Virus record (IMG/VR): IMGVR_UViG_2737471819_000028
Coordinates: 1-3,646 of that record
Strand: one strand, 5' to 3'
Length of the DNA stretch: 3,646 nt
From: a virus
Lineage: Duplodnaviria > Heunggongvirae > Uroviricota > Caudoviricetes
The notes beneath the pieces were generated by a model that saw nothing but the letters and a program-made list of their open reading frames with translations, was not told the origin of the DNA and made no database searches. Made by a program: the position numbers and the translations under genes. This document shows, piece by piece, positions 1,546-3,646 of the stretch (position 1 is its first letter; every line of letters begins with the position of its first letter).

Positions 1546-1573
1546 TCCTCGCACTCGCGGGGATTTCTTTTAT
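1546..1573 (+). terminator. Intrinsic-terminator-like hairpin downstream of the 93-aa gene
   Basis: Stem 1546-1552 (TCCTCGC) pairs with 1557-1563 (GCGGGGA): 7 bp with one G-U wobble, loop ACTC. Followed by the T-rich tract TTTCTTTTAT (1564-1573). Lies 20 nt after the stop codon. Confidence 0.5.
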
Positions 1574-1576
1574 CTG

Positions 1577-1601
1577 AACTCGCTACGGCGGGTTTTGTTT
1601 T
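1577..1601 (+). terminator. Second, tandem terminator-like hairpin abutting the next gene's ribosome-binding site
   Basis: Stem 1577-1583 (AACTCGC) pairs with 1588-1594 (GCGGGTT), loop TACG. T-tract TTTTGTTTT runs to 1601. The core (CTCGC-N4-GCGGG plus T-run) is nearly identical to the hairpin at 1546-1573. The T-tract runs directly into the GGAG Shine-Dalgarno at 1604-1607. Confidence 0.45.
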
Positions 1602-2335: not shown

Positions 2336-3646
2336 ATGGCGAATTCAGCCTATCCAGCCGGCGTTGAAAATCACGGAGGAAAACTCCGAATAACGTTTAA
2401 GTACAGGGGTAAACGAGTGCGCGAAAATCTTCGCGTGCCCGATACACCGAAAAACAGAAAGATCGCTGGTGAGTTAAGGGCTTCGGTCTGCTTTGCAATC
2501 AGAACAGGAACGTTTGATTATGCCGATCGATTCCCTGACTCACCTAACCTGAAGCTATTTGGCCTGGTAAAAAAAGATATCACCGTCGGTGAACTGGCAC
2601 AGAAATGGCTTACTCTGAAAGCAATGGAAATCGGTAGTAACGCCTTAAATCGTTATCAATCAGTGATGAAAAATATGCTACCGAGGCTTGGTCCTGGCAG
2701 GCTGGCGTCATCGATTACAAAAGAAGATCTGCTGTTTATCAGGAAAGATTTACTGACCGGGGAAAAGGGAAGCAGGAAAACCAGCACGTCCCGAAAAGGA
2801 AGAACCGTACCCACAGTGAACTATTACATGACAACAACAGCCGGAATGTTCAGCTTTGCCGCCGAAAACGGGTATCTGGAGAAAAACCCGTTTAATTCAA
2901 TAACACCGCTGAGGAAATCAAAACCAGTGCCGGATCCACTGACCAGAGATGAGTTTAGCCGTCTCATTGATGCCTGCCATCATCAACAGACCAAAAACCT
3001 CTGGACAGTGGCTGTTTTTACAGGGATGCGACACGGTGAAATTGCCGCACTTGCATGGGAGGATATCGACCTGAAAGCTGGCACGATAACAGTGCGACGA
3101 AATTTTACAAAAATAGGTGATTTTACGCTACCAAAGACCGACGCAGGCACTAACCGGGTTATACATCTTCTGGCACCAGCAATTGAAGCACTTAAAAACC
3201 AGGCGATGCTTACTCGTCTTAGCAGGCAGCATCAGATCACTGTTCAATTACGCGAGTACGGAAGAACAATTTTGCACGAGTGCACTTTTGTTTTCTGTCC
3301 GCAAATCGTTCGCAAGAATCACAAGGCGGGTATTAACTACGCGGTAAGCTCCATCGGAGCGACATGGGATTCAGCAATAAAAAGAGCGGGTATCCGATCC
3401 CGTAAAGCGTATCAGTCACGCCATACCTATGCGTGCTGGGCTTTATCTTCCGGAGCAAACCCGACATTTATTGCATCACAGATGGGGCACTCCAGCGCCA
3501 GCATGGTCTACAATGTTTATGGTGCATGGATGCCTGAGTGCAGCGTGACTCAAGTTGCCATGTTGAATAATGTCCTTAATGCCCGTGCCCCAGACGTGCC
3601 CCAAAGTGACCAGGAGGATGAAATAAAATTATATTTTTCAAAATGA
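2336..3646 (+). CDS. int: Phage tyrosine integrase (site-specific recombinase) with N-terminal arm-type DNA-binding domain, Rac IntR-like
   Basis: Tyrosine-recombinase catalytic motifs are readable in the translation: TGMRHGE (Arg I), LPKTDAG (Lys), YQSRHTYACW (Arg II/His), QMGHSS (His) and MVYNVYGAW (Tyr nucleophile). The N-terminus GKLRITFKYRGKRVRENL...FDYADRFPDS is typical of the arm-binding domain of Rac/IntR-type integrases. ORF track starts at GTG 2312; ATG 2336 is preferred because AGGAGG (2326-2331) precedes it. Stop TGA at 3644-3646 is the window end. Confidence 0.93.
   Translation: MANSAYPAGVENHGGKLRITFKYRGKRVRENLRVPDTPKNRKIAGELRASVCFAIRTGTFDYADRFPDSPNLKLFGLVKKDITVGELAQKWLTLKAMEIGSNALNRYQSVMKNMLPRLGPGRLASSITKEDLLFIRKDLLTGEKGSRKTSTSRKGRTVPTVNYYMTTTAGMFSFAAENGYLEKNPFNSITPLRKSKPVPDPLTRDEFSRLIDACHHQQTKNLWTVAVFTGMRHGEIAALAWEDIDLKAGTITVRRNFTKIGDFTLPKTDAGTNRVIHLLAPAIEALKNQAMLTRLSRQHQITVQLREYGRTILHECTFVFCPQIVRKNHKAGINYAVSSIGATWDSAIKRAGIRSRKAYQSRHTYACWALSSGANPTFIASQMGHSSASMVYNVYGAWMPECSVTQVAMLNNVLNARAPDVPQSDQEDEIKLYFSK

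Follow-up and report, generated by a model that had tools for sequence, protein, structure and literature searches.

Lambda's pL operon is interspersed with intrinsic terminators, namely tL1, the tL2 cluster, and tL3, which sometimes lie in tandem and are bypassed by N-modified RNA polymerase. Downstream of int lies another hairpin element, sib (tI), a long RNase III substrate that controls int expression according to whether the polymerase is N-modified. Besides such regulatory sites, lambdoid phages carry small accessory genes known as morons. Juhala and coworkers reportedly described these in 2000 as units of exchange that are flanked by terminators and bring along a promoter of their own.

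The closest described counterparts of the element discussed here are found in the lambda exo-xis region, to which Bloch et al. (2014, PLoS One 9:e108233; PMC4195576, Table 4) applied ARNold. Their terminators t3 (TTACATAACAATCCTCGCA CT CGCGGGGATTTATTTTATCTG, -11.4), t4 (TTTTATCTGAACTCGC TACG GCGGGTTTTGTTTTATG, -9.2), and t5 (AAGAACACCAAGCCGCCTGATGGCGGTTTTTTCTTGCGTG, -11.2) were each found by both Erpin and RNAmotif; int expression and antitermination are not discussed in that work. The site known as tL3 is a different one, located just after exo (pKD46 description, PMC8402550). In phage HK022, a 1989 GenBank record of the int-xis region (X51962) names a "tL4 terminator" and also annotates the sib site.

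The stretch of DNA that we analyzed (hereafter the window, 3,646 nt) is 100% identical over positions 1130-2000 (871 nt compared) to the prophage adjoining wrbA in E. coli 2014C-3061 (NZ_CP027548), whose locus numbering is given below as L001. In the RefSeq annotation, the + strand of this prophage encodes, in order, a cI-like repressor, cIII, kil, gam, bet, exo, DUF1317, DUF1382, TraR-like, Ea22-like, and DUF551 proteins, followed by two hypothetical genes that lie in the window (Ea8.5-like and Zn-ribbon), excisionase, and integrase, after which comes wrbA. A pL-like promoter (TTGACC-17-TATCTT) and a nut region together span L001 2738-2845. Within it, a nutL-like boxA/boxB site (L001 2814-2845, GCTCTTTAA ... 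GCGCTGACAAAGCGC) lies on the same strand, and its boxB part folds into a 5-bp stem with a 5-nt loop (-8.5 kcal/mol). We take this boxB, GCGCTGACAAAGCGC, to be a P22-type sequence. Next comes an N-like gene (L001 2966-3307; phrog_271 "anti-termination protein N-like", E = 1.4e-46). Promoter, nutL-like site, and N-like gene are situated about 6.6 kb upstream of the hairpins and on their strand, and all genes from pL to int are co-directional on the + strand. With an N-type gene at its head, a nut site between promoter and N, and a co-directional string of genes running to int, the + strand of the source prophage is a lambdoid pL operon (pL, nutL, N-like gene, cIII ... xis, int).

A scan of this prophage located eight terminator-like sites on the + strand between pL and int, and promoter-like sites on that strand at pL and inside int only, with no other before xis. 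Some of the terminator-like sites occupy places corresponding to those of lambda tL1, tL2, and tL3, namely a close pair just before cIII (L001 4077/4115) and a tL3-like site after exo (L001 6341). The pair that concerns us differs from these lambda sites in being the last cluster before xis and int.

This pair fills the 87-nt gap between the stop codon (TAA, 1524-1526) of the 93-aa Ea8.5-like gene and the RefSeq start codon (ATG, 1614; L001 9485) of the Zn-ribbon ORF. Hairpin 1 (+ strand; stem-loop 1545-1564, with its T-run 1545-1574) reads ATCCTCGC-ACTC-GCGGGGAT followed by TTCTTTTAT, and hairpin 2 (+ strand; stem-loop 1576-1595, whole feature 1576-1603) reads GAACTCGC-TACG-GCGGGTTT with the T-run TTTTGTTTT at 1593-1601. 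The Shine-Dalgarno motif GGAG of the next ORF, as read from the sequence, is at 1604-1607 on the + strand, 6 nt before the ATG. The initial annotation had thus placed the two hairpins and their T-runs correctly, and its remark that the second T-run ends 2 nt before GGAG is accurate as well. In what follows, we refer to the conserved segment 1540-1613 (+ strand; 74 nt), comprising hairpin 1, T-run, hairpin 2, T-run, and Shine-Dalgarno, as the block.

Folding and terminator scoring, two of the checks proposed in that annotation, both came out in favor of terminators. Folded alone, hairpin 1 reaches -12.1 kcal/mol (z = -4.9) and hairpin 2 reaches -10.6 kcal/mol (z = -4.6), far better than dinucleotide shuffles, none of which was as stable (0/200 in each case); the whole 94-nt intergenic stretch folds at -25.6 kcal/mol (z = -2.6). 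A simple terminator scan of the window called both hairpins, plus a third site at 1954-1973. Each has a stem of 8 bp and a loop of 4 nt, with five G-C pairs in hairpin 1 and four in hairpin 2. Both are stable, G+C-rich stem-loops of usual terminator size (taken as a stem of about 5-14 bp and a loop of 3-8 nt) with a U-rich tract directly 3', as is typical of intrinsic terminators. E. coli terminators have on average a stem of 7-8 bp and a loop of 3-4 nt, and resistance to processive antitermination is associated with very long stems (PMC10325885). The hairpins therefore match the E. coli average and are far removed from the resistant class. On the opposite strand they are weaker (-8.7 and -4.2 kcal/mol), and no T-run follows either stem.

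How alike are the two hairpins? The window contains exactly two occurrences of CTCGC-N4-GCGGG, spaced 31 nt apart, where 0.11 are expected (two or more were seen in 1/200 shuffles), and no further copy of the motif was found in 18.9 kb of the source prophage. The observation of a recurring core is thereby confirmed. Calling the hairpins near-identical, on the other hand, was an overstatement, as the match is limited to the 5-nt core arms (5 + 5 nt, the same U·G wobble included); the loops have nothing in common, and the outer pairs are not the same. In a global alignment, the two 31-nt units score 5, a value reached by 1/2,000 composition shuffles, whereas an alignment of hairpin 1 with an unrelated terminator elsewhere in this operon (L001 4115-4145) yields 8. 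The resemblance of the pair is thus within what terminators show each other, and the earlier suggestion of a small duplicated repeat is left without support: a duplication origin finds no backing in this control alignment. Tandem Repeats Finder (minimum score 30) reported no repeat, and a generic repeat search placed the hairpins in no repeat family. The degenerate pattern TCGCNNNNGCGRG...CTCGCNNNNGCGRG was poorly suited to a scan of genome contigs, all its matches being chance ones in genomes of high G+C content such as Streptomyces and Actinomycetes MAGs.

The same element is present in HK022 and, in the same place between ea8.5 and the next small ORF, in lambda. The block is identical to lambda at 71/74 positions (minus strand, about 29,360-29,287, between ea8.5 and orf55), and the 60 nt upstream of it at 37/60. 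Hairpin 2 has the same sequence as the lambda copy and corresponds to t4; hairpin 1, corresponding to t3, differs by 1 nt in the T-run (C here, A in lambda); the third site corresponds to t5. The ARNold calls cited here are the published ones on the lambda copies, carried over to the window by identity. In HK022, the tL4 feature of X51962 lies exactly over hairpin 1 and its T-run. The hairpin pair is therefore already known: t3 and t4 of lambda have been predicted in print, and hairpin 1 is tL4 of HK022. A literature search found no report measuring 3' ends, termination efficiency, or N-dependence at the pair; Term-seq in an Stx lysogen has been published (PMC7547250). HK022 uses put RNA rather than N (PMC9378689), and that it carries the same block is what one would expect of a generic terminator.

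The HK022 record has some further peculiarities. Separating the t5 hairpin from xis is an additional ORF of about 114 codons (X51962; L244 500-960). This ORF ends with another hairpin (CCGCATCAATGCGG) before the tail TTTTTCTTGCGTGTAATTGCGG, which in lambda follows t5, a pattern of "different stem, same tail" that also occurs at hairpin 1 (see below). In addition, the orf55 homologue of this record (L244 340-440) reads ATGCCTTCC where lambda has ATGCACTTCC, shifting the frame; this may be a sequencing error in an old record or a real frameshift.

Compared with lambda, the genes around the block have diverged or been replaced. The Ea8.5-like gene (1245-1526, + strand; Pfam PF20735 Lambda_ea8_5, E = 9e-16) encodes a protein with only 41% amino acid identity to lambda Ea8.5. 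On the other side, the orf55 of lambda and most relatives is replaced by the Zn-ribbon ORF (99 aa; 1614-1913, + strand), as in 933W-type Stx phages. This ORF matches phrog_3680 (E = 2e-69), which has no assigned function, and no Pfam family. The segment directly behind it (1914-1979, + strand) is identical to lambda at 66/66 positions and consists of the last 18 codons of orf55 plus t5, with a stem at 1954-1973 followed by TTTTTTCTT. The Zn-ribbon ORF is thus a cassette that takes the place of precisely the first two thirds of lambda orf55, the junctions being its start codon and the position directly after its own stop. In lambda, the orf55 stop codon sits inside the t5 loop. The third terminator, called by the scan mentioned above, folds at -14.2 kcal/mol (z = -4.0) over 1945-1980.

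Next in line is the excisionase gene (1999-2283, + strand; Pfam PF06806, E = 1e-30; "excisionase family protein" in RefSeq), which would be the first gene shielded by the three predicted terminators. The tyrosine integrase gene (2336-3646, + strand; Pfam PF12167 and PF00589, also annotated in RefSeq) is the last of the operon, with wrbA next to it. At the upstream end of the window, positions 195-1130 form one continuous ORF of 311 codons with a C-terminal DUF551 domain, which RefSeq splits into a DUF551 pseudogene fragment (L001 8066-8200) and a separate CDS (L001 8228-9001). The 114-nt gap between this ORF and the Ea8.5-like gene (1131-1244) is very A+T-rich and contains a 16-nt inverted repeat (1155-1170 / 1194-1209).

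The initial annotation also held that there is no room for an independent promoter, and the promoter scan agrees: no sigma-70-like site was found on the + strand in 1130-1620. Candidates for a promoter in 1131-1244 or overlapping hairpin 2 were considered and rejected, as none passes the scan and the best hexamers picked by eye are wrongly spaced. The only Rfam match in 1131-1244 is a chance microRNA. The cassettes around the block resemble morons in being small accessory genes next to predicted terminators, with sharp mosaic junctions at the gene edges; they differ in that the scan detects no promoter-like site before either the Ea8.5-like gene or the Zn-ribbon ORF, so that both appear to depend on pL. 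With sib, the pair has in common that it is an RNA hairpin element of the same operon, but it is located upstream of xis, and its short hairpins show no extended helix of the RNase III type.

We consider it likely that the two hairpins are tandem intrinsic terminators of a lambdoid pL operon, stopping unmodified polymerase before xis and int and being bypassed by N-modified polymerase. Here, termination at the sites is predicted from folding and terminator models, while the override by N follows from what is established for lambda and from the layout of the operon. Polymerase left unmodified by N at nutL would stop at hairpin 1 or else at hairpin 2, and any that passes both would be caught by the third terminator 360 nt downstream. 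The accessory ORF, xis, and int would receive no transcription from upstream unless N is active. Upon induction or infection, N-modified polymerase coming from pL would read through all three terminators, after which the Zn-ribbon ORF would be translated from the GGAG directly following the second U-run. The idea, already put forward from the DNA letters, that expression of the downstream genes relies on read-through or antitermination, in the manner of N-type lambdoid operons, is supported by the context: the N-like gene, the nutL-like site and pL-like promoter, the co-directional genes, the eight terminator-like sites with no other promoter-like site before xis, and the position of the block in lambda. 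In addition, the block is probably a shared joint at which neighboring gene cassettes have been exchanged among lambdoid phages.

That last role calls for a look at how the block is distributed, for which the census covered E. coli genomes and phage records. A 69-nt core is present in 2,226/5,426 complete E. coli genomes (about 41%), at 3,271 places and up to five times per genome; these copies are mostly 95-99% identical and unannotated in RefSeq. Phage records with the block number 316, from Escherichia, Stx-converting, Salmonella, and Shigella phages. When viral contigs were scanned with the anchor GTTTTATGGAGATGAT, 120 loci were obtained, and the block was present in 92. Three types of gene follow it at the viral-contig loci, namely orf55 (most loci), the Zn-ribbon ORF, and a 124-aa ORF (one locus). 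At least eight different gene ends precede it, among them Ea8.5, an ASCH-domain protein, and unrelated ORFs of about 74, 148, and 280 codons (stop to stop). With so many partners on either side, the block evidently sits at mosaic junctions; in 933W-type phages, for example, homology to the window begins at 1540. It had been proposed that membership in a longer repeat family would speak against a stop signal. The first half of this holds partly, in one sense, as the block of about 70 nt is a widely shared lambdoid intergenic module, yet such sharing is no argument against termination.

The variants among 96 related copies are informative about the hairpins themselves. Hairpin 2 folds at -7.6 kcal/mol or better in 91/96, and the hairpin, its T-run, and GGAG are almost invariant, the commonest variant being a change of the U·G wobble to U-A. 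Hairpin 1, on the other hand, is missing in nine copies and in some lineages is swapped for other stems before the same TTCTTTTATCTG tail. The replacements include ATCCTCG-CACTGA-CGAGGAT, AACCTCG-CACCGT-CGAGGTT, and AACCCGC-CGAGT-GCGGGTT, as well as a weak stem, CCGC-TTAAT-GCGG, with the upstream stop codon in its loop. This exchange of stems is suggestive of a need for a hairpin and not for one particular sequence.

Some phages carry partial copies, whose breakpoints fall at stem and T-run edges. In VT2phi_272 (L245 1200-1265), the stem of hairpin 2 is kept and its T-run is replaced, in front of an anti-repressor gene. In Stx2_111430 (L246 1205-1260), hairpin 1 and its T-run are all that is present of the block, and the junction follows TATCTGAA. 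Since hairpin 1 is absent in some phages and the T-run of hairpin 2 is lost in VT2phi_272, neither hairpin is indispensable. A related tandem pair, AACCCGCCGAGTACGGGTT-TTCTTTTATCTG-AACCCGCTGCGGCGGGTT, is found in Gifsy-2 (NC_010393, about 10,940-11,000; L247 about 1180-1245). It belongs to a different operon and lies between a hypothetical gene and dinI, upstream of the latter; the double-hairpin module is thus not confined to the exo-xis region.

This mosaic distribution invites another explanation, which we regard as unlikely, namely that the block is kept mainly as a recombination linker for cassette swaps by homologous recombination, with any terminator activity being secondary or weak. 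In its favor, the block is identical to lambda at 71/74 positions between an upstream gene with 41% identity (at the protein level) and an unrelated downstream gene, and one and the same block stands behind at least eight and before three different genes. Breakpoints also recur at the edges of the block and between its parts: ahead of hairpin 1, directly behind each of the two stems, behind TATCTGAA, and at the start codon. The related tandem pair of Gifsy-2 is found in another operon. Nevertheless, junctions at gene edges are also left behind by selection after random recombination, so that these data do not establish a hot spot, and diversity within the block equals that at neighboring synonymous sites. 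A linker would also leave unexplained why each unit has a textbook hairpin and U-run, and on the coding strand only. Finally, a linking role is compatible with termination and not opposed to it. A stronger version, in which the block of about 70 nt would be more than a passive stop signal and crossovers would occur preferentially at the boundaries of its hairpins and T-runs, making it a portable joint for recurrent swaps of accessory cassettes among lambdoid phages, is quite improbable in our judgment. If true, it would explain why breakpoints fall exactly at stem and T-run edges, and the related Gifsy-2 pair as well.

How strongly, then, is the block constrained? For 50 distinct copies with orf55 downstream, nucleotide diversity is 0.050 in the block versus 0.062 at third and 0.027 at first and second codon positions of orf55. 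As the value for the block is so close to that of third positions, its conservation needs no special selection. Variation falls mainly in the loop, in the wobble pair, and at one T-run base. In a pair count over 29 distinct copies, 97% of the cells are paired, with one double change, and 67/500 shuffles do as well; because these copies are 96% alike, the covariation is not significant. Conservation alone thus proves little, and the case for structure rests on thermodynamics, on geometry, and on the finding that other hairpins can stand in for hairpin 1.

Could the conserved pair belong to a regulatory RNA instead of being a simple stop signal, as had also been raised? Hfq-binding small RNAs typically consist of a hairpin, a U-rich spacer, and a terminator hairpin with a U-tail. 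The layout here (hairpin, UUUCUUUUAUCUGAA, hairpin, UUUUGUUUU) resembles such a module, and both hairpins would remain on any transcript that ends at hairpin 2. The pair might on these grounds serve as the 3' part of a small regulatory RNA, or persist as a stable fragment of a 3'-UTR, produced by cleavage of the ea8.5 message or by termination on it. We find this very unlikely. No Rfam family matches at its gathering score: for the whole window and E values up to 10, there were only sub-threshold chance matches, and the best one overlapping the pair is rsmX (16.5 bits versus a threshold of 56 bits, E = 6.8). Furthermore, the scan detects no promoter-like site upstream, and hairpin 1 can be exchanged or lacking. 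Across the upstream contexts, conservation is confined to the hairpins, which leaves no seed region. The regulatory-RNA proposal accordingly gains no support.

A/U-rich leaders are translation enhancers, and the U-run does abut GGAG, but it is scarcely credible that the hairpins act mainly post-transcriptionally with little termination, either as barriers to 3'-exonucleases that stabilize the upstream message (barriers which matter only with a nearby 3' end, the very thing that termination would supply) or by hairpin 2 and its U-run tuning translation of the next ORF, given that the helix masking the ribosome-binding site in the minimum-energy fold (AUUUCU, 1563-1568, with GGAGAU, 1604-1609) makes up 4% of the ensemble, is absent from the centroid, and is not conserved, lambda having A where the C of the window pairs with a G of GGAG; we have therefore rejected this helix between the first T-run and GGAGAU.

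Coming back to tandem termination as the preferred reading, its weight as a discovery is small: the element exists in lambda, where it has been the subject of a published prediction, and one half bears the name tL4 in a 1989 record. Its practical use is modest and lies in annotation and in what it says about lambdoid phages. RefSeq could label the block as a terminator pair marking the last barrier before xis and int. The mosaic surroundings of the block neatly illustrate how lambdoid phages exchange cassettes at gene edges. Lastly, the presence of three predicted terminators within 430 nt upstream of xis suggests how lysogens keep the excisionase silent.
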